DNA of 55,308 nt from Acidobacteriota bacterium. Its GTDB lineage: Bacteria > Acidobacteriota > Thermoanaerobaculia > UBA2201. The notes under the pieces are model-generated. The model was not told the origin of the DNA, ran no database searches, and saw only the letters and a list, made by a program, of their open reading frames with translations. Shown here in pieces: positions 8,872-55,308 of this stretch (its first letter is position 1; every line of letters starts with the position of its first letter). Made by a program: the position numbers and the translations under genes. The stretch spans positions 1 to 55,308 of the forward strand of contig JBBISU010000019.1 in the NCBI GenBank assembly GCA_037441225.1. The letters are read 5' to 3'.

Positions 8872-10564
8872 TGTATTTGGTATATTTCTAATTTTTATAT
8901 ATGTTTTTTCCTTAAATTCTCAGGAAAAACAAGACCCTTTAAGTGATTTAAAACTTCAAACTCCAATAGAACCATTTCTTGGTTTAACTTCTTCTTTTTG
9001 TGAATTTAGAACCACCCACTTGCATAGTGGGGTTGATTTTTCAACAGGGCAAAAAAATGGACTTCCTGTCCTTGCAACATTGGATGGAGAAATAAGAGAA
9101 GTCAAAATTACTTATAGGGGCTATGGAAAGGCACTTTATCTTTACCATAATAACAATTTAACTTCTGTTTATGCCCATTTATCAAAATTTCATCCTTCAA
9201 TTGAAGAATATTTAAAATCCTATTATGATAAAGCATTATATCCAGGAACCATTACTATTGACCCACCATTGAAGGTTCTAAAAGGAGATATAATTGCCTA
9301 CAGTGGAGAGACAGGAGAGGGCTATCCTCATTTGCATTATGAACTAAGAAAAAACAATAATCCTATAAATCCACTTCCTTATTTTTCCTTTAAAAATGAA
9401 TCAAAAATTAAGATAAAAAAAATAGTAATAACACCTGAAAGCCCTACTTCAAGTATAAATAATAGATTTACAAAAGTATCTTTCCCTTTTCCATTAAAAA
9501 ATGAAATTAAGGTAAGAGGCCCTTTTTCAATTGGAGTTGAAGTTTATGATTTTTATAATGGAAATAAAAGGGGTATTCAAAAAATACTTTTATATCTCAA
9601 CAATGAACTTGTTTGTCGAGTTTCTCCTGATATTTATTCTTTTGATAATTATTATGGCGTAAGATTTCTTTATGATGGCTTATTTTCTAAGTTTTCCACA
9701 ATAAAATTAGTTTACAATTTAAATCCACAAAAAGGTAATCCTTATAGCTTTATTTCAGGGAAAAATTTTTTTGATTTAAAGGAAGGGAAATATCTTTTTA
9801 AAATTGTTGTTTATGGAATAGAAGATTCTATGGAAGAAAAACTTATTATGAATGTTTTGAAACCCTTAGATAAGCCACCTAAACTAAATCAAAACTTTTT
9901 TTTAAAAACCCATTTCTTCCTTAAAAATCAAGAGGGACAGTTTTATCCTGAATCAATAAGAGAATACGATATTGGTTTAAATAAATTTTATATCGGCTAC
10001 CTAAAACCCTATGAAAAATTTGTTTTGCCTCCTTATGAAATAATACATAAGGAAAATATTCCAATCCCCTTTTGCTTTTATTTAAAAAAAGAAAACAATG
10101 ATTCGAAATTAAGAGAAATAACCCCTTCTCTTTTTATAGAACCAAAAGATTTGGGGCTTTCAAAAAAAATTGAAATTTCAGTAGATTTAAAGGAAGAAAT
10201 GGAAAAAGAAAAAATTGGCATTTATAGGATAAGAGGAAATCTTTATTTAGGTGGAAATTGGGAAGGAGATAAGTTAAAGGCAGAGGTCTTTGCACCAGAA
10301 GATTATTATGTTTTAAAAGATGAAATACCACCACTAATTTTAAAAATCTGGAAAAAAAATAAAAAGATATATGTTTTGACAAAAGATATTGGCTCTGGAA
10401 TACCCTGGGATGGAGTAAAAGTTTCAATAAATAATAAAGTTAAAATTTTGGAATATGATCCTGACCATTTGATAGCAAAAGGAGAATTGGAAGAAAAAGG
10501 GAGATGCTTGATTATGGTAAGTGATTATGCAAAAAATAAAACTTCAAGAGCTTTTGAATTTTAA
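8795..10564 (+). CDS. M23-family metallopeptidase with a large C-terminal extension
   Basis: HLHSGVDF and GEGYPHLHYELR motifs (HxxxD / HxH). The start is uncertain, because the first in-frame ATG overlaps the S41 gene by 77 nt. Confidence 0.8.
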   Translation: MMNRYCNLFKTLIKLKNLQKIILKISVFGIFLIFIYVFSLNSQEKQDPLSDLKLQTPIEPFLGLTSSFCEFRTTHLHSGVDFSTGQKNGLPVLATLDGEIREVKITYRGYGKALYLYHNNNLTSVYAHLSKFHPSIEEYLKSYYDKALYPGTITIDPPLKVLKGDIIAYSGETGEGYPHLHYELRKNNNPINPLPYFSFKNESKIKIKKIVITPESPTSSINNRFTKVSFPFPLKNEIKVRGPFSIGVEVYDFYNGNKRGIQKILLYLNNELVCRVSPDIYSFDNYYGVRFLYDGLFSKFSTIKLVYNLNPQKGNPYSFISGKNFFDLKEGKYLFKIVVYGIEDSMEEKLIMNVLKPLDKPPKLNQNFFLKTHFFLKNQEGQFYPESIREYDIGLNKFYIGYLKPYEKFVLPPYEIIHKENIPIPFCFYLKKENNDSKLREITPSLFIEPKDLGLSKKIEISVDLKEEMEKEKIGIYRIRGNLYLGGNWEGDKLKAEVFAPEDYYVLKDEIPPLILKIWKKNKKIYVLTKDIGSGIPWDGVKVSINNKVKILEYDPDHLIAKGELEEKGRCLIMVSDYAKNKTSRAFEF

Positions 10565-37223: not shown

Positions 37224-38396
37224 ATGGTTTTATTTAACTATGCAACCAGAGAAGTAACAGCAAAAATTGTCTATTATGGTCCCGGACTTTGTGGGAAAAC
37301 TACAAATTTAAAATTCATATACGATTCCCTCCCATCAAATTCAAAATCTAAGATGATCTCTCTTGCAACAAATCAAGATAGGACATTATTTTTTGATTTT
37401 TTACCTTTGGAACTTGGAACAATTAAAGGTATGAATGTGCGCCTCCAATTATACACAGTGCCAGGGCAGGTCTATTATAATTCTACAAGGCAACTTGTCT
37501 TAAAAGGGGCAGATGGAGTTATTTTTGTTGCTGATTCACAAGAATTTATGGAGGATGCAAATATTGAATCCTGGAATAATTTGAAAGAAAATTTATTAGC
37601 CCATGGGATAATTTTGAAAAATTTTCCCCACATAATTCAATACAATAAAAGAGATCTTGCAAATATTTTACCTGTTGAATATTTGGATACTAAATTAAAC
37701 GAATATAAAGTTCCTTACTTTGAATCAATTGCAACAACTGGCTATAATGTAGAAGCAACATTGAAAGAGATGACAAAAATAGTTCTTCAAGATTTATTAA
37801 AGAAATATAATATTTCGCCACAGGATGCAATTTTGTCAGAAGAAATTATTTTAATCCCCCAAGAGGTTCAAAAAAAAGCAACAATAACAGTAGGAGGTTC
37901 TATTATGGGTATAGAAGATGAAACATTAAATTCACTATGGGAAAAGGAAGAAGAAAAAGAGACCTTTTCTTTTGAAGGAGAAGAATATGAATTTAAGGAA
38001 ATAAAACAAGAAGAAATTTCTTTTGAAGAAAAAGAACCTTTCCAGGATATTTTTGAAAAAAAAGAAGAAAAGTTACCTTTAGAAAAGCCCCTTGAAGAAG
38101 AAAAAGTTTTATTTGAAAAGCCAATTGAAGAAAAAGAATTGATAATTGGAAAAGATTTAATTGAAAGAAAGGAAGTTAGCCAACAAATTAAAACTGAAGA
38201 AAGTGAGTTAATAATTGAAAGAAATTCTGTTGAAGAACCAATTCCTTTATCCTTTGAAAAAATTGAAAAACAATTGAATATTCCAAAAGAAATTAGGCAA
38301 AAGGACATCTATATTACAATTTCTTTATCAAAAGAAGAGATTGAAAATATTGAAAACTTAGAATTAAATATAAAATTAAAAATAAAAGTAGAATAA
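37224..38396 (+). CDS. mglA: MglA-like Ras-superfamily GTPase with a ~195-aa acidic C-terminal extension
   Basis: The first ~195 aa align by eye along the full length of Myxococcus MglA: KIVYYGPGLCGKTTNL, DRTLFFDFLPL, LYTVPGQVYY, IQYNKRDL. They are followed by an E/K-rich tail (..EKPLEEEKVLFEKPIEEKE..). Confidence 0.85.
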   Translation: MVLFNYATREVTAKIVYYGPGLCGKTTNLKFIYDSLPSNSKSKMISLATNQDRTLFFDFLPLELGTIKGMNVRLQLYTVPGQVYYNSTRQLVLKGADGVIFVADSQEFMEDANIESWNNLKENLLAHGIILKNFPHIIQYNKRDLANILPVEYLDTKLNEYKVPYFESIATTGYNVEATLKEMTKIVLQDLLKKYNISPQDAILSEEIILIPQEVQKKATITVGGSIMGIEDETLNSLWEKEEEKETFSFEGEEYEFKEIKQEEISFEEKEPFQDIFEKKEEKLPLEKPLEEEKVLFEKPIEEKELIIGKDLIERKEVSQQIKTEESELIIERNSVEEPIPLSFEKIEKQLNIPKEIRQKDIYITISLSKEEIENIENLELNIKLKIKVE

Positions 38397-42499: not shown

Positions 42500-45400
42500 T
42501 TATTGACCAATTACATAAATTGCATCACCTGTGTAATTATCAACAACAGAACCATAAACAAGGACAGATCCATTTCCAGAAAGCACCTTCACCTTTGCAT
42601 ATCCATTATTTACATTGCCAATATTGAAGATTTCAAAAATCCTATTTATCTGCTTAAACTCATTTCCAGATAAATTAAACATACCACTTGCAAGTTCATT
42701 TCCATCAGAAGAATATAATTTTATTTCAACTGTTGCAGGGCTACCAGTGATTTCAGAAATGCCAATGTTTGTTCTGAAAGATTCATTTGATGCAAGGTGC
42801 AATATGTATTGTTCTTGATTAATTCCTATTGCTCCCTGGATAAGTGTAGATGGTACAAATTGTCCATAGGTCATATTTTCTTCCATTGATGTATAAATTC
42901 TTGATGTAGCAAGGACTCCTTCTGGGGCAATAATCTGGACTTCCCCTACATTATCAGTTAATCCAAAAAATTGTTCGATTAAATCATTTGTATAAATTAT
43001 ATTTTTCCCTTCTACTTCAACTGTCTTAGTATAAAGGTTTCCTTTTTCAACAAAATTAATGGTTACATCTTGTGCCTCTTCCTTTGGATTAAATATCCTT
43101 AAATCACTCTTCCAGAAAGTTCCTCTATCTCCTTCCTTATTAGCTGCAACGGCAATTGATTGGTTTTGCAAATTCCCTTCTTCTTTTAAAAGAGGAACAA
43201 AGATTGCATCATTTGAGTAATTATCCACAACAGAAGCATAAGCAAACAAGGCACCATCTCCATTAATTTTAATTTCAGCCCTTGCAGATGATTTAAAACC
43301 AGAGATACCTAAATTATTAAAGATATCATTTACTTGTAAAAATCCTTTTGGTTGTAAATTATAACTACCGCTTCCTAAGAGATTATTTTCATTATCATAA
43401 ATATTAATTAAAGCTTCCACAGGTTCTCCCTTCACTTCCATAAATCCAACATTTGTCCTAAAAGAAATAGAATTTATTAAGTGGAATATATGACCTACTT
43501 CATTCTGCCTTACAAAATAACTACTATCTTTTCCAATAGCACTGCTTACATCATAGCCCTTTACAAACTGCCCATAAGTTCCTAATTCAGTCCTATTATA
43601 AGTCCTTGCAGTAGAAATTGAGTTCCCATTGGATACAATTTGTATTCCACCTACTATATGGCTTAAGCCAAAGGTATTTTTTACTATGTCATTGAAAATT
43701 GCAAGTTTCTTTGGTTCAATTGTTCCTTTGAACTGATATGGTGTTTGAGTTCCATCTGTATCAGGTGGTATAAAGTACATTGTATAACTTATTGTTTTTT
43801 CTGTTGGATTAAAGATTTGAACATCTGTTTTCCAGAGTGAAGACCTGGCACCCTCTGCACTTGCAACAGCTGGAATTATTGTATTATATTCCTCAACAGG
43901 TGGAGCACCTGCTGTTGTAAAATGCCAAGCTTCACTGGAAGCATTTCCACAACTATTTACTGCATTTATAACCCAGTAATAAGTTGTACCTTCTTCTAAG
44001 TTTGAAACAACAAAAGATGTTCCAGTTGTTGTTCCTATAAGGTCTAAATAACCAACCATTTTGCCTAAATAAACCTCATAATAATCTGCACCAGAACCAG
44101 ACCAGACCAACTCAATTGGTGGAATTAAATCAGTTGAGCCATTTGGAGGAGATATGAGTTGTGGAGGATCTGGTGGAATGCAACCTGTCTCTGTTGTAAA
44201 AGACCATGTTGAAGAGGAAGTAGTTCCACAAGCATTAACTGCTTCTACCCTCCAGTAATAAGTTGTACTTTGAGAAAGGGATGGAATTGTAAACTGGCTT
44301 GATAATATATTTGATTGATAAAGAAGAGGTGTTGGGTTTGTACCAAAATATAAATTATAAGATGTAGCACCTGATGAATCCTGCCAATCAAGTAAAACAT
44401 TTGCTGTAGGTATACCAGTTGTTCCATTTGGAGGAGAAATTAGATTAAAAGCACCTGGTACTGGGCAAACCGTTGTAAAAGACCAAACTGCCGATGAGGT
44501 TGTTCCACAAATATTTACTGCATCCACATACCAATAATAAGTAGTATTCTGTGAAAGGGATGGTACTGTTATTTGACTTGTGGCAAGTCCGACTTGATAA
44601 AGAGGTGGGGGAATTGTTTGGCCTAAATAGAAATTATAAGATGTAGCGCCAGCTGAATCATCCCAGTCAAATAAGACATTTGTTAAAGGAACATTTGTTG
44701 AAAGATCTGGAGGTGTAATTAAATTAAAGGGATCTGGCAATGGACAGGAACAAACATTACATACAGGAGTTGTTACGGAAATATAAACATTGTCTATACG
44801 CCAGTACCAATCCCAAGCAGGTGTGAAAAAATGAAATTTTATTTGAATTGTTTGCCCAATGTAAGGTGTTAAATCAATTGTAACATGGTGCCCTGTTGAA
44901 GGATCATCTATTGTTTCATACCTTAAATTTGTCCAAGTTGCACCACCATCTATTGAAATATCTGTCCAAGCATCTCCATTTCCTAAATAGTCCTGGAAAT
45001 TGCAGTCATAATCAAGTATTGCACTTGCATAGCCAGAAAGATTAATTAGTGGAGTTATCATAGAAGTATCCATTCCACCACCACAGGCATCTGAATCTGC
45101 ATCTGCTGCTTCACCTGCACCACCTGTATCATTTGTAGCACCCCAGTATGCAGTTGACCGCCATACATCACAAGACCAACCAGGTTGTTCATCTACAATT
45201 GTCCAACCAAGAGGTGGCCAACTTTCAAATTCTTCAGAAAGAAGGTATATAACAGGACCAGAACCACCTACATTTATTTGAAATGTATCAACCCAGCTTC
45301 CTTCATTTGAAGTTATGTTTAAAGTAAAATCAATTGTTGTCCCACAGGGAATTGTTTCACTTAAGTAAACCTCAAAAGGAGTTGCAGGTGGTGCAAAAGA

Positions 45401-48325
45401 GCCAACAGGAATATCACCATAACTTGCATTTGAAACAATTATCGTAACAAGAGGATTTGTTGTGCTTAAAGATGCATTTATACCTGTTGAATGTGCAGTA
45501 CCTGTATTTTGTATAATTGGACTGATATCTAAGTATTCACCAGGGTCTGCATTTGAATCTCCATCACCTGGACCACCTGAAAGACAATCATCTACAAAAG
45601 AAGTTGACTGGATTGAAAGGTTTGGTGTACCAGGTGTACAAATATTGCATACTGGGGAGGATGTAACTGCAAAAATTGATATATCATCAATGTGGCAGTC
45701 ATTTCCATAAGCACTTACTCCAAGTATTCCAATCATAACATTTGCCTGCCCTGCATAAGCAGATAGATCAACGCTATGCTCTGTCCATTGTACCGTTCCA
45801 TCATACCTTGAAATTGGTGCTCCTACATCTGCCCAACTTGTTCCTCCATCTGTTGAAACTTGAACCTGAACATAATCATTTGAAGTATTATATTCAATGT
45901 CATGGTACATCCAAAAATAAATATTTATAGAACCATAAGTAGAAAAATCAAAAGGAACATTGTATTGGAGGCGTGCACTCTTTCCAGATATTACATGCCA
46001 GGAATTAAACCATACAAGATTTGGAGCAGAATGGGAAGCTGTACCTGAAGGATGATGCGTTCCTGCATTTGTTGCCCAGGCAGGTGTTGTCCCACCTGGA
46101 TTGTTTACCACAACAGAGGACCAGTTTGCAGGAAGCGCTGGTGGAGCAATGCCATCAAAATTCTCATAAAATATTCTTGTAAGGGTTGAACCAACAGACA
46201 ATTGGAACATATCTGCCCAGCCACCTTCATTTGAAGAAATACTTAAATTTAAATCAATTGTTGTACCACAGGGCATTGTGGAATCTAAATGTATAAGATA
46301 ACCAGTTATAGAAGTTCCAGTTCCAGAAGCAGGAATATCTGGATAATTTGAAGAATTATTTAAAACAGTCACACCTGGAGTTGTGCTTGATAGGATTGCA
46401 GAAACACCAGTTGCTCCATCTGTTCCACTGTTTCTCAAAGTAACAAAAATAGTTATATCTTCACCTGGGTCAATTACACTATCCCCATCTCCAATACCAC
46501 CTGTCAAGCAATCATCTGTGTATATTGAACTATCATATTCAAGATTTGGTATTGAAACAGCAGCTGTTGTAAAAGACCATTCTGCGCCAGTCATAGTACC
46601 TGAACTATTTTTTGCAATAACATACCAATAATAGGTAGTTCCATTTGCTAGTCCATTTGCAGTGTATTGCGAAGAAGTTAAATTGCTTTGAAATAAGGGC
46701 GGGGAGGGGGTTGTTCCAAAATATAAATCATAGTAAATTGCATAAGGCGCATCTTCCCAGTCAATTAAAAGACCATTTGTTGGCTGGTCAATAGAGCCAT
46801 CAGGTGGTGCAATGTTATTAAATGCCCCAGGGGGTGGTGGTCCTACACAAGAAACAATTGATATGCCATCAACTTCTGCATCCCCTTGAAAAGCACCAAC
46901 AAGTGTTGTTGAGCCATTTGTAAGGTTTACAGTCCTGAGTTCACCTCTGCTCAATGTAAGATTATAAGCAGCCATATACATAATTTGATTGTCTACATCA
47001 AAATCCATTCCTTGTGCATAATTTGCATTAAAACCAACAGGACCTAAAAGAGTTGGAACTGCTGTTGCTGCATCAATTTTATATAAATTATCATTTCCTA
47101 TGTCAAGTGTATATAAATTTCCTGAAGAATCTGCTGCCAAATTTATAGCACAACTAACACCTGACACTTGCCCAACTTCTGTTGTTGCTCCATTTGCTGG
47201 ATTTAATGTATAAAGATAAGTATTACTTCCACAGTCAGTTGAAATTGCATAGACAGTTCCATTTGCATGTTCTGCAAGACCTGTAAAATAAGGTGCTGCA
47301 GGGTTTGGAGTTGAACTTCCTAAAACTGTTTTAGAAGCATCTGTTGTGCTGTAAGCAACAAATTGATTTGTATTGTCATCTATTGCATATATTCTGCTGT
47401 AATCCCCACCTATAAAATCTGCTCCGAAAGGGTAATCTGAACCAAAACTTCCAACTACATTAAATGTCCCTGGATTTGAAAGGTCAAACCAGACAAGGTT
47501 TGAATTATCCAAATCAAATCCATAAGCAACAACAGAACAAGCAGAAGTAGTGGTTGTAAAAGACCAAACAGGTCCTGTGGCAGGAGGGCACGTATTTAAA
47601 GTGTTATCTGCTACCACATACCAGAAATACTGTGTATTTCCTGAAAGCCCTGTAACATCATACTGACTTACAGAAGTTGTTCCATAATAAGGGGGTGGGT
47701 TTGTTGTTCCAAAATATAAATCATAAGTATTTGCACCAGTTGAATCATCCCAGTTTAAAGTCAAAGTTGTTGGTTGGTTTATTGCCCCATCTGCAGGATT
47801 AGGATTTGAAGGAAATGAAATTTGTGGATTTGAAGGACAGGAAACTGTTAAGTTTAAATCAGAATCATTTCCTGGTTGATCACTTTCTGTTGTTGAAGAC
47901 CATAAAACATTTCGCAGTTGAAAAGAAATTGGAGTTCCATCACAAACATCTGTTAGAGTATCAAAAGTAAAAGATGCCAAAAGTTGCGAACCAGAACCAG
48001 AAGGAATTGGAAGACCTGCAGCAGCAAAATTTATCCAGTTTGGAAAAACTCCAACACTTTCCGTCCAACCATTAGTTGTAAGTATTGGTCCCATAGTGTA
48101 ACCTGAATATGAAAAAATAGTACTATCAAAATAAAGACCTCCACCTGCGCCATCATTACTCCATTGAACTGCTACCAAATCATCAGGATTATCAACCCAT
48201 ACTTCAACATTTATTTGGTTTCCACAGGTAGGGTTATTAGCCACAAGTGAAAAACTTCGCGCTGCAGAAAGCACTACCAGAGATGAGGATAAAAAAACAA
48301 GGAAAAAAAGAATTAATTTTTTCAT
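42500..48325 (-). CDS. Giant (1941 aa) secreted modular surface protein
   Basis: Signal peptide (aa 1-21) and a cohesin-like beta-sandwich (aa ~24-163). Five Fn3-like modules each end W(S/H)FTT (aa 172-258, 499-587, 1195-1285, 1288-1378, 1383-1471). A propeller-like segment spans aa 262-492. Two copies of a [DDCL.GG.GDGDS..DPGE...PCGTTID..L.I.SNEG.W] module plus a jelly-roll/MAM-like domain lie at aa 592-887 and 899-1186. Two ~230-aa C-terminal repeats lie at aa 1480-1712 and 1722-1941. Confidence 0.9.
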   Translation of the reverse strand: MKKLILFFLVFLSSSLVVLSAARSFSLVANNPTCGNQINVEVWVDNPDDLVAVQWSNDGAGGGLYFDSTIFSYSGYTMGPILTTNGWTESVGVFPNWINFAAAGLPIPSGSGSQLLASFTFDTLTDVCDGTPISFQLRNVLWSSTTESDQPGNDSDLNLTVSCPSNPQISFPSNPNPADGAINQPTTLTLNWDDSTGANTYDLYFGTTNPPPYYGTTSVSQYDVTGLSGNTQYFWYVVADNTLNTCPPATGPVWSFTTTTSACSVVAYGFDLDNSNLVWFDLSNPGTFNVVGSFGSDYPFGADFIGGDYSRIYAIDDNTNQFVAYSTTDASKTVLGSSTPNPAAPYFTGLAEHANGTVYAISTDCGSNTYLYTLNPANGATTEVGQVSGVSCAINLAADSSGNLYTLDIGNDNLYKIDAATAVPTLLGPVGFNANYAQGMDFDVDNQIMYMAAYNLTLSRGELRTVNLTNGSTTLVGAFQGDAEVDGISIVSCVGPPPPGAFNNIAPPDGSIDQPTNGLLIDWEDAPYAIYYDLYFGTTPSPPLFQSNLTSSQYTANGLANGTTYYWYVIAKNSSGTMTGAEWSFTTAAVSIPNLEYDSSIYTDDCLTGGIGDGDSVIDPGEDITIFVTLRNSGTDGATGVSAILSSTTPGVTVLNNSSNYPDIPASGTGTSITGYLIHLDSTMPCGTTIDLNLSISSNEGGWADMFQLSVGSTLTRIFYENFDGIAPPALPANWSSVVVNNPGGTTPAWATNAGTHHPSGTASHSAPNLVWFNSWHVISGKSARLQYNVPFDFSTYGSINIYFWMYHDIEYNTSNDYVQVQVSTDGGTSWADVGAPISRYDGTVQWTEHSVDLSAYAGQANVMIGILGVSAYGNDCHIDDISIFAVTSSPVCNICTPGTPNLSIQSTSFVDDCLSGGPGDGDSNADPGEYLDISPIIQNTGTAHSTGINASLSTTNPLVTIIVSNASYGDIPVGSFAPPATPFEVYLSETIPCGTTIDFTLNITSNEGSWVDTFQINVGGSGPVIYLLSEEFESWPPLGWTIVDEQPGWSCDVWRSTAYWGATNDTGGAGEAADADSDACGGGMDTSMITPLINLSGYASAILDYDCNFQDYLGNGDAWTDISIDGGATWTNLRYETIDDPSTGHHVTIDLTPYIGQTIQIKFHFFTPAWDWYWRIDNVYISVTTPVCNVCSCPLPDPFNLITPPDLSTNVPLTNVLFDWDDSAGATSYNFYLGQTIPPPLYQVGLATSQITVPSLSQNTTYYWYVDAVNICGTTSSAVWSFTTVCPVPGAFNLISPPNGTTGIPTANVLLDWQDSSGATSYNLYFGTNPTPLLYQSNILSSQFTIPSLSQSTTYYWRVEAVNACGTTSSSTWSFTTETGCIPPDPPQLISPPNGSTDLIPPIELVWSGSGADYYEVYLGKMVGYLDLIGTTTGTSFVVSNLEEGTTYYWVINAVNSCGNASSEAWHFTTAGAPPVEEYNTIIPAVASAEGARSSLWKTDVQIFNPTEKTISYTMYFIPPDTDGTQTPYQFKGTIEPKKLAIFNDIVKNTFGLSHIVGGIQIVSNGNSISTARTYNRTELGTYGQFVKGYDVSSAIGKDSSYFVRQNEVGHIFHLINSISFRTNVGFMEVKGEPVEALINIYDNENNLLGSGSYNLQPKGFLQVNDIFNNLGISGFKSSARAEIKINGDGALFAYASVVDNYSNDAIFVPLLKEEGNLQNQSIAVAANKEGDRGTFWKSDLRIFNPKEEAQDVTINFVEKGNLYTKTVEVEGKNIIYTNDLIEQFFGLTDNVGEVQIIAPEGVLATSRIYTSMEENMTYGQFVPSTLIQGAIGINQEQYILHLASNESFRTNIGISEITGSPATVEIKLYSSDGNELASGMFNLSGNEFKQINRIFEIFNIGNVNNGYAKVKVLSGNGSVLVYGSVVDNYTGDAIYVIGQ

Positions 48326-54299: not shown

Positions 54300-54693
54300 A
54301 AGAAATATTTTAACATAAAACTTCAATAATTTATAAAGTTTGATCCCTTCTTTCTTTCTTTAACTTTTAAAAGTTGTGATTTTGAATTTTTTTTTAAATC
54401 CCATTGTTATTTTTTAAAAAATCTTTGTTCTTAAATTTTTTCTTAAACCAAAAATGTCATTAAAATTTAATTATTAATAGAACCCTCCTTTTTTTCTTAT
54501 AATAAAAAACACCAAAGATTCAGAAATAAAAGAAAAAAGAAGCCAAACCTTGTGGTAAATTACAACATGCTGGAAATACAATAAAAATTTTTTTCTGCAG
54601 GGGTTGAGATTGCTTAAGCCCGGTATTTTTCAAGTCGTGCAAGGTTTCCAATAATTATATTACAAATCCTGCTCTCATTAATCCCTTTTCCCT

Positions 54694-54951
54694 TCATTTC
54701 TTTATAATTATTGGAGAAATAACTATAAATATCAAAACTATTAAAAATAATATCAAATATGTTTTCCTAACTTTCAATAAAAAATCTGCTTTTATGATTT
54801 TTTTCCATCTCAAAAAATAAAGAAAAATAATCACAAAAAATATTGAAATCAAAATATAAATTGGCAATATATAATTCATACTAATTTTCAATAATAAAAA
54901 TAGAAAGATAAATAATAAAATAACTGTGATATTTGATGACAAATTCTTCAT
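54694..54951 (-). CDS. Small three-TM membrane protein; candidate immunity protein for the upstream Rhs tip
   Basis: 85 aa with three hydrophobic segments. SD aggagg lies 6 nt before the ATG, and the gene starts 21 nt after the Rhs stop codon. Confidence 0.5.
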   Translation of the reverse strand: MKNLSSNITVILLFIFLFLLLKISMNYILPIYILISIFFVIIFLYFLRWKKIIKADFLLKVRKTYLILFLIVLIFIVISPIIIKK

Positions 54952-54972
54952 AATATGCCTCCTTTCATTTTA

Positions 54973-55308
54973 TTAAAAAGGTCCAGATGGTATGCATAAC
55001 CATGCTAAACCTTCATAACATGCCTGAACAGCTAAACATTCCAGCCAATCCTGTCCTGAACAACAATCACAAGGAAATCCTGTGCCATCCCAACAACCTC
55101 CACAATCATCGCATAAACCTTCAAGACATTCATTAATATCATTTAAAGGCCCTCCATTAGATAACATCATTCCAATAATTGGCTTGCCATAAAGACCTAT
55201 TGGATCTGAATAAGTTAAAGGTAGATTATATGAATAAATATAAAAATTTTGCCAAAGAGAATAAAATAAAATATCTTTATTTATAAACCTTCCTAAGTGT
55301 GAATTATA
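54973..55308 (-). CDS. 3' end of an Rhs/YD-repeat polymorphic toxin gene (partial; continues beyond the window) with a cysteine-rich C-terminal tip
   Basis: The minus-strand frame is open from the window edge: YNSHLGRFINKDILFYSLWQNFYIYSYNLPLTYSDPIGL (the GRF..D...N.Y.Y..N.P....DP.GL end of the Rhs-associated core; DPIGL = 55192..55206). A 72-aa tip follows. The track's 65-aa ORF is only its tail. Confidence 0.75.
   Translation of the reverse strand, partial: YNSHLGRFINKDILFYSLWQNFYIYSYNLPLTYSDPIGLYGKPIIGMMLSNGGPLNDINECLEGLCDDCGGCWDGTGFPCDCCSGQDWLECLAVQACYEGLAWLCIPSGPF

Follow-up and report, generated by a model that had tools for sequence, protein, structure and literature searches.

A probable short Rhs-type cassette with a cysteine-rich tip and a candidate membrane immunity gene at the end of a 55-kb stretch of Acidobacteriota DNA

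We analysed a 55,308-nucleotide stretch of DNA from an Acidobacteriota bacterium (Thermoanaerobaculia, UBA2201; NCBI GenBank assembly GCA_037441225.1, contig JBBISU010000019.1, positions 1 to 55,308), the whole of which is referred to here as the window. At its right-hand end, the minus strand carries the terminus of an Rhs-associated core, a variable cysteine-rich tip and a candidate immunity gene. We consider it probable that these elements form a short, orphan-type or 'mini' Rhs C-terminal cassette, in which an envelope-acting, disulfide-rich toxin would be paired with a membrane immunity protein. On this reading, the window ends inside the last cassette of an Rhs-type polymorphic-toxin locus. 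The cassette consists of the following features, which include one open reading frame (ORF) from the ORF list:

55192..55308, minus strand: last 39 codons of the Rhs-associated core, clipped by the window edge (YNSHLGRFINKDILFYSLWQNFYIYSYNLPLTYSDPIGL; TIGR03696 match)
55273-55275, minus strand: candidate catalytic aspartate D12, in KDILF (spacing and family alignment)
55204-55206, minus strand: candidate catalytic aspartate D35, in DPIGL (spacing and family alignment)
55192-55194, minus strand: predicted self-cleavage site, after L39 (DPxGL motif)
54973..55191, minus strand: variable tip, 72 aa plus TAA (translation and composition)
54952..54972, minus strand: spacer of 21 nt with the Shine-Dalgarno sequence AGGAGG at 54958-54963, 6 nt before the ATG (direct reading)
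54694..54951, minus strand: 85-aa ORF, candidate cognate partner, that is, immunity protein (ORF list and hydropathy)

Translated directly, the minus-strand frame at 54973-55308 comprises 111 stop-free codons up to the window edge, closed by a TAA codon at 54973-54975, and reads YNSHLGRFINKDILFYSLWQNFYIYSYNLPLTYSDPIGL followed by YGKPIIG...CIPSGPF. The ORF list gives only a 65-aa ORF here (54973..55170), which is the same frame entered at an internal ATG. A first-pass annotation of the window had noted that this frame stays open for 46 more codons to base 55308, and the translation confirms it.

The same annotation had proposed that an Rhs core closes at this point and had called for a search with Rhs-core models. 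Residues 1-39 match the NCBIfam model TIGR03696 (Rhs_assc_core) with E=8.3e-5 and 23 bits, over model positions 38-76 of 76, and the alignment terminates exactly at DPIGL. Because the window does not include the first half of the domain, the score falls short of the cut-off of 32.5 bits. Homologues with the full module score 52-62 bits, above the cut-off, and the core segment is 50-60% identical to relatives that pass it. A profile of the family alignment (A2), compared with solved structures, matches the extreme C-termini of Rhs, Tc and related proteins, namely 8qja (1.9e-12), 8h8a, 7q97 (RhsA), Tse15, Tse5, TccC3 and YenC2. The core end holds the only DPxG[LMIV] motif in the six-frame translation of the 55-kb window.

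The Rhs autoprotease site has been described as DPXGL-(18)-DPXGL (PMC9637101). RhsA of Pseudomonas protegens has D1324 and D1346 as its catalytic pair and is cleaved after W1350 (PMC8765631); the motif and the mutational evidence come from these two studies. The spacing between D12 and D35 is 23 residues, which matches the DPXGL-(18)-DPXGL motif and is close to the 22-residue spacing of the RhsA pair. In alignment A2, K96 and D117 do not vary and D97 hardly does; the first DPxGL is degenerate throughout the family, where it reads KD(I/L)(L/I)(F/Y), and is KDILF in the window. The window copy looks intact, with LGRF, both aspartates and DPIGL all retained. Judged from sequence, the assignment of this segment as the C-terminal end of an Rhs-associated core, the aspartyl autoprotease 'plug', is secure, and its activity is predicted. 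The segment stops at the DPxGL autoproteolysis motif, in agreement with the boundary suggested in the first-pass annotation.

The tip is acidic (10 Asp or Glu against 1 Lys or Arg) and contains 10 cysteines and 12 glycines. It has neither a signal peptide nor a hydrophobic segment, and it has no counterpart among the Pfam and NCBIfam families. With the 111-aa fragment as query, a word-index homology search returned no relatives, and exhaustive phmmer recovered five proteins from 1.84 billion representative ones. Only two of these share the tip. P0001 (164 aa) resembles the window in both core end and tip, with 58% identity over the whole fragment (E=3.3e-25). P0004 matches in the tip only (E=1e-4), behind a different N-terminal region of high G+C content (GC), and such a second context is expected for polymorphic-toxin domains. 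The other three, P0002, P0003 and P0005, have the core end alone in common with the window, and P0002 and P0005 bear other cysteine-rich tips. That the tip is a variable one, as previously suggested, is borne out by its presence in two proteins only, while the same module bears more than 20 unrelated tips.

The three related tips have the motifs ECLExxC(D/E)DxGxCW ... CxxCxGQ ... YE ... and a late cysteine in common, with six conserved cysteines in total. All six are kept in the window tip, which is 62% identical to that of P0001; their retention at this identity over a large phylogenetic distance indicates purifying selection on the tip. AlphaFold2, run with the three-sequence alignment, gives a model of moderate quality, a helix-hairpin-helix with a predicted local distance difference test score of 67.6 (core, 70-84), and Foldseek found no significant fold match to it in the PDB. 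The best hits were secreted phospholipases A2 (E=4, template-modelling score 0.29). A phospholipase A2 identity was ruled out, since the Foldseek hits all have E>=4, template-modelling scores of about 0.3 and root-mean-square deviations of about 8 Å, and since the tip has no equivalent of the catalytic His in the CCxxHD motif. A foreign origin of the cassette was likewise rejected. The GC of the tip is raised (0.39), but its GC at third codon positions is 0.19, as low as in the neighbouring genes, and the raised overall value comes from the Cys, Gly and Asp codons. The sole terminator-like match of the window falls inside the tip coding sequence.

Reading of the sequence together with hydropathy analysis confirms the 21-nt spacer, the AGGAGG and the 85-aa ORF with three transmembrane segments that the first-pass annotation had described downstream of the tip. 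The three hydrophobic stretches lie at about residues 8-22, 26-46 and 64-83, as segments of about 19 residues with mean Kyte-Doolittle values of 2.3-3.2, and a strongly basic loop (RWKKIIKADFLLKVRK) connects the second to the third. When the 673-nt region was shuffled 2000 times, 5 of the shuffles yielded an ORF of 85 aa or longer; this ORF, the core match and the single DPIGL motif all exceed chance expectation. Neither Pfam nor NCBIfam assigns the protein to a family, its weak matches (HgcAB_like, TgpA_N and others; E>1) representing hydrophobic noise. Homology to the 54-aa membrane ORF that starts 3 nt downstream of the P0001 tip was rejected despite a BLASTP E-value of 0.002, because unrelated transmembrane segments of the window score equally well or better. 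A second collinear match, in another frame, is suggestive of a frameshifted homologue and is not significant. The ORF is placed where the partner genes of related cassettes sit, in agreement with the immunity-gene position first proposed for it. Its position, Shine-Dalgarno sequence and spacing, together with the co-variation in the family described below, fit a cognate immunity protein, for which we regard it as a candidate. Between this ORF and a gene for a FadL-like outer-membrane protein lie 367 nt (54327-54693) with no convincing ORF, no similarity to tips or partners of related loci and no terminator-like site.

A search with P0001, followed by one with a profile of its upstream region, yielded 42 proteins among 5.8 billion, all of 44-232 aa. 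They contain a conserved module of about 120 aa, GIDFPLIM..YFYFLNGHNDV..YEYNPWGvLLTSASKNNLLYTAREFDFDTGLQFNRMRYYxxxLGRF...DPxGL, followed by unrelated cysteine-rich tails. A pattern scan located 35 loci in metagenomes and one among 185,579 species genomes, in a metagenome-assembled genome labelled Thermoanaerobaculia (locus L003). No relative was found in viral contigs, and a phage-borne family was rejected on this basis. As far as these scans reach, the cassette family is rare and confined to one lineage. Many copies of the module are provided with their own start codon, whose position recurs (MGPGIDFPLIM...). Housekeeping genes flank the cassettes, which stand alone or form short tandem arrays. 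On the 44-kb metagenomic contig that encodes P0001 (L001), the contig start lies inside a core end with a cysteine-rich tip, followed by an IS4-type transposase, then by a degenerate core with its cysteine-rich tip and partner, and then by the P0001 cassette. Between cassettes of the FWPU and FWPV metagenomes, the module DNA is 76-100% identical (most pairs >90%) and the tips are unrelated; an orphan in L002 shares 78% identity with the window end over 122 nt.

The cysteine content of 24 tips (39-132 aa) has a median of 12.9% and ranges from 4 to 18%, compared with 0.83% in the large ORFs of the window. In most of 26 cassettes, the gap between the tip stop and the partner start is 3-21 nt. A comparison of these cassettes, as called for in the first-pass annotation, shows that tips and partners co-vary: 7 pairs of cassettes are similar in both, 7 in the tip only, 2 in the partner only and 215 in neither (Fisher p=1.8e-8, a value that is approximate because the L006/L007 pair is a duplicate). 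One such pair, formed by the first tip of L001 and its partner of 237 aa, is found again in L003 and L023. Nearly all partners have a signal-peptide-like or lipoprotein-like leader or are small proteins with several transmembrane segments. The latter group comprises those of L034 (74 aa), L041 (73 aa), L032 (137 aa) and L001 (54 aa) and the 85-aa protein of the window.

These observations bear on the question of whether the products are weapons at all. The cysteine-rich tips could instead be peptides that are released, or modules that bind metal, with a role in signalling, adhesion or kin recognition, and with the partners as receptors or processing factors. The window tip has no toxin-domain signature, is acidic and is rich in CxxC-like spacings, and the example of the teneurins shows that non-toxic roles exist among Rhs-type proteins (PMC8765631). 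However, hypervariable tips with co-varying, tightly linked partners in tandem arrays are a signature of toxin-immunity diversification, and dozens of unrelated tip families would be unexpected for a signalling system. We therefore regard a non-weapon function as very unlikely.

Some partner-related sequences were noted elsewhere. Among ten partners scanned, the only Pfam match is FecR_C (PF16344, E=2.9e-9), in a 188-aa partner of L028 (531-1097). The window contains a 1941-aa ORF (42500..48325) for a large FN3-rich surface protein, whose C-terminal part (42512-43882, minus strand) comprises two tandem domains homologous to the 240-aa partners of a different Rhs-tip family (L003 1355-2077, L023 4269-5012 and L001 1881-2594; 28-31% identity, E ~1e-18). 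The same C-terminal domain also ends other large proteins on the related contigs L031 and L044; it has no Pfam family and seems to be lineage-specific. The GC of window positions 44001-48000 is 0.38, compared with about 0.29 elsewhere, and this region coincides with the Gly-, Ser-, Thr-, Pro- and Ala-rich N-terminal two-thirds of the 1941-aa ORF.

The first-pass annotation had placed the bulk of an Rhs gene beyond position 55308 and had named what would count against it, a frame that soon closes and no YD-repeat protein upstream. This is the pattern found in the relatives. Among 28 cassettes with an intact YY..LGRF, 20 have upstream DNA, and the remaining 8 reach a contig start within 67 residues. 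Every one of the 20 frames is closed 28-136 codons (median 84) before GRF, by TAA (13) or TGA (7), and the whole open frames encode 102-405 aa (median 188). An alternative genetic code as the cause of the closed frames was rejected, as the long ORFs of the window read normally in table 11. In addition, neither of the two protein searches found a module-bearing protein longer than 232 aa. Four loci are bounded by housekeeping genes on long contigs:

L039/40: ftsA-ftsZ ... membrane protein; then a 230-aa cassette, a 230-aa partner, a 177-aa cassette and a 283-aa partner; then RmuC
L044: PBP1 ...; then two decayed cassettes with partners; then an ABC transporter
L041/42: sulfatase and GT2; then one cassette with a 73-aa transmembrane partner; then radical-SAM and FtsK
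L047: LptD; then one degenerate cassette; then FabD

Two more, L043 and L045, are bounded on the left side. No YD-repeat shell gene is present in any of these loci. Two copies carry N-terminal export signals: in L043, a Sec-type signal peptide directly precedes the module (MELKRFFAVLILLFSFALFPCGNAHYT-MGPGIDFPMIM), and in L041, a signal peptide and one RCC1-like blade are in frame with module and tip, an arrangement now interrupted by TAA and by a TGG to TGA change.

The claim of a large upstream Rhs gene is thus unsupported, since the frames of the relatives close upstream and their bounded loci contain no shell gene; what stands of the earlier interpretation is the core end, the tip and the position of the partner. 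By analogy with the relatives, the window gene is more likely a short cassette than the end of a multi-kilobase rhs gene. Under the latter alternative, the window or contig edge cuts through a full-length gene, which would encode an N-terminal trafficking domain and a YD-repeat cocoon; the fragment would be its 3' end, with the tip and immunity gene as the main expressed pair. This alternative is consistent with the intact and typical core terminus, and the solved proteins matched by the family profile are all 650-3400 aa long and have shells. Moreover, Rhs genes often break assemblies, and full-length genes may be hidden behind the eight cassettes that run into contig starts. Nevertheless, none of the 20 resolvable relatives is of this type, the longest module protein among 5.8 billion sequences has 232 aa, and the bounded loci have no shell gene. 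In the resolved arrays (L001, L010, L020, L022, L023 and L028), the cassette beside the housekeeping genes is always short and preceded by another partner gene. Finally, no type VI secretion system or other delivery genes were noted among the large ORFs of the window, of which only seven were scanned against Pfam. We consider a full-length gene unlikely.

The window stops where the DNA common to the cassettes begins (..RYYNxxLGRF), and the contig breaks of the relatives are scattered through that block, which suggests that the module is present in several copies in the source genome as well. A 40-nt exact search of genome and metagenome contigs for a continuation of the window returned nothing, and no exact match to the 85-aa protein, the FadL-like protein or FabH of the window was found in the collections searched.

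Another alternative is that the cassette is a dead, decaying relic and the 85-aa ORF a chance open frame in AT-rich DNA. Decay is evident in the family, in the L041 pseudogene with its in-frame TAA and TGG to TGA stops, in the split partners of L044, in an insertion resembling a miniature inverted-repeat transposable element (MITE) within the module, and in relatives whose degenerate cores have no GRF or DPxGL; the 85-aa ORF itself has no homologue, its matches being at noise level. The window copy, however, retains LGRF, both aspartates and DPIGL, and it keeps all of the family-conserved cysteines at 62% identity to P0001, which implies that the tip is under purifying selection. In front of the 85-aa ORF, a consensus AGGAGG stands at ideal spacing, and the length of this ORF was reached in only 5 of the 2000 shuffles. 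A relic is accordingly a highly improbable explanation of the window copy.

Signs of decay and rearrangement in the relatives were recorded in some detail. The MITE-like insertion (L017, about 1385-1530) is about 150 nt long, GC-richer than its surroundings and has inverted ends GGTGAA...TTCACC. It is also present in L036, L025, L005, L008, L013, L021, L033 and others, the copies being 89-98% identical between loci. In many cassettes, it splits the module between GIDFPLIMNYSDTE and (I)CEYNPWG and introduces stop codons, the in-frame reading being KVNMHKTCDCIPHTRTIRELPLRATPTENGHALPFTISTQDKSFCYIY. The L041 pseudogene (9590-10348) corresponds to a secreted protein of about 250 aa, with the signal peptide, the RCC1-like blade, the Rhs C-terminal module and a hydrophobic cysteine-rich tip. 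Its only breaks are the in-frame TAA and the TGG to TGA change, which lies in YEYNPWG, and the 73-aa multi-transmembrane ORF follows it. In L043 (10001-10837), the module copy with the Sec-like leader is cut off after ..SANKNNL, and an unrelated ORF that extends to the contig end replaces the rest.

Several points weigh against our reading of the window as a short cassette for a toxin and its immunity protein. The sequence of the window copy ends at base 55308, leaving room for a shell beyond it, and since assemblies break inside the repeated module, full-length genes could be hidden. The relatives are only 50-60% identical and stem mostly from two metagenome groups plus one metagenome-assembled genome. 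Many of them are degenerate or interrupted, and the family may be largely decaying. The 'mini' proteins mostly have no recognisable signal peptide, and in its acidic charge the tip does not resemble known membrane-active peptides. No homologue of the 85-aa ORF was detected, and its composition (GC 17%, rich in Ile, Leu and Phe) is one to which AT-rich DNA readily gives rise.

Among known systems, the named comparators are the Rhs/YD-repeat polymorphic toxins, such as P. protegens RhsA (PDB 7q97), Acinetobacter baumannii Tse15 and TcC of the Tc toxins. The family resembles them in the TIGR03696 core terminus, the aspartate pair, the DPxGL boundary, the variable tip and the downstream partner gene. 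It differs in that the resolvable relatives have neither a YD-repeat cocoon nor an N-terminal trafficking domain, in that the first DPxGL is reduced to KD(I/L)(L/I)(F/Y), and in that its tips are small (39-132 aa) with 4-18% Cys (median 13%), whereas known tips are enzymatic or pore-forming. We found no precedent for cysteine-rich Rhs tips in the literature.

An orphan rhs-CT/rhsI module consists of a truncated gene, with the 3' part of the core and a tip, and an adjacent partner gene, and such modules form tandem arrays. Classical orphan rhs-CT modules lie directly downstream of a full-length rhs gene. The cassettes share with them the 3' core part followed by tip and partner, the tandem arrays and a conserved 5' homology block, the 3' core being conserved in DNA between copies; this block could support recombination between cassettes. 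Unlike the classical orphans, the arrays are bounded by housekeeping genes and have no main gene (L039/40, L044, L041/42 and L047), their members have recurrent start codons of their own, two copies (L043 and L041) are fused to Sec-type signal peptides, and the cargo is uniformly tiny and cysteine-rich. The orphans meant here are those of Enterobacteria (PMC3150448, PMC3967940 and PMC7043789).

In Pseudomonas aeruginosa Tse5/Tsi5, an Rhs pore-forming tip is paired with a small immunity protein with two transmembrane segments (PMC9637101). As in that system, the Rhs core boundary in the window is followed by a non-enzymatic tip, and the candidate partner, with its three hydrophobic segments, would be a small integral membrane protein. 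Tse5-CT, however, is a hydrophobic, membrane-inserting domain of about 150 aa that is delivered by a full Rhs shell and a type VI secretion system, whereas the window tip is acidic and cysteine-rich, without a hydrophobic segment and without sequence similarity to Tse5. In function, Tse5/Tsi5 is the nearest precedent for an Rhs tip with a small membrane immunity protein beside it. A purely functional analogy can also be drawn with secreted disulfide-rich peptide toxins and bacteriocins, which are small, have a high cysteine content, are released from a precursor and have a dedicated small membrane immunity protein. There is no sequence or significant fold relationship to these, and the leader is an Rhs autoprotease module rather than a Gly-Gly or Sec leader.

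Under the short-cassette reading that we favour, the window gene would have about 150-250 codons, be of the orphan or 'mini-Rhs' type and close about 30-140 codons beyond base 55308. Its precursor would be exported, and the core would then cleave after L39, freeing the tip. The freed tip would be disulfide-bonded and act in the cell envelope of competitors, and the 85-aa protein would protect the producer from its place in the inner membrane. We infer the 'toxin' and 'immunity' roles. An envelope site of action is suggested by the cysteine content (median 13%, compared with 0.8% in the other proteins of the window), by the lack of any enzyme signature in the tip and by the signal peptide, membrane anchor or several transmembrane segments found in nearly all partners of the family.

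A more far-reaching possibility, which we put forward tentatively and hold to be rather doubtful, is that in the lineage of the window the Rhs C-terminal module has become independent of the YD-repeat shell and that the small proteins of about 150-250 aa are the functional units. Such a unit may retain only one or two YD-like strands, the last ones, joined to the self-cleaving aspartyl-protease plug and to a hypervariable cysteine-rich tip. It may take one of two forms. The proteins may be precursors exported by Sec or otherwise, with the plug as a self-removing leader for disulfide-rich peptide toxins. Alternatively, they may be interchangeable 'plug and cargo' subunits, each of which would complete in trans a cocoon encoded by a separate gene, for which TcB/TcC, with one cocoon common to both, may serve as a model.

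Among the other features of the window is a small GTPase of the MglA/Ras type (37224-38396, plus strand), with a Ras family match at residues 49-187 and a Glu- and Lys-rich C-terminal extension of about 200 aa that matches no family. It is 58% identical to its counterpart in L044. No tRNA genes and no Rfam families above the gathering threshold were found in the 55-kb window.

The current picture of Rhs toxins is that of large cocoons, in which an enzymatic or pore-forming tip is enclosed and delivered. A shell is lacking in the relatives, and its absence would apply to the window copy by analogy. If the window copy is only an ordinary rhs end, it adds one more polymorphic-toxin locus with an unusual tip. 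If the shell-free reading is true, the window cassette would be one complete and intact example once its roughly 100 missing codons are recovered. Should the module always be free of a cocoon, its cargo would constitute a new class, that of disulfide-rich, envelope-acting mini-toxins without a known fold, and the family could reveal a new use of the self-cleaving Rhs module; it would then be a catalogue of more than 20 unrelated pairs of cysteine-rich peptides and partners for testing.

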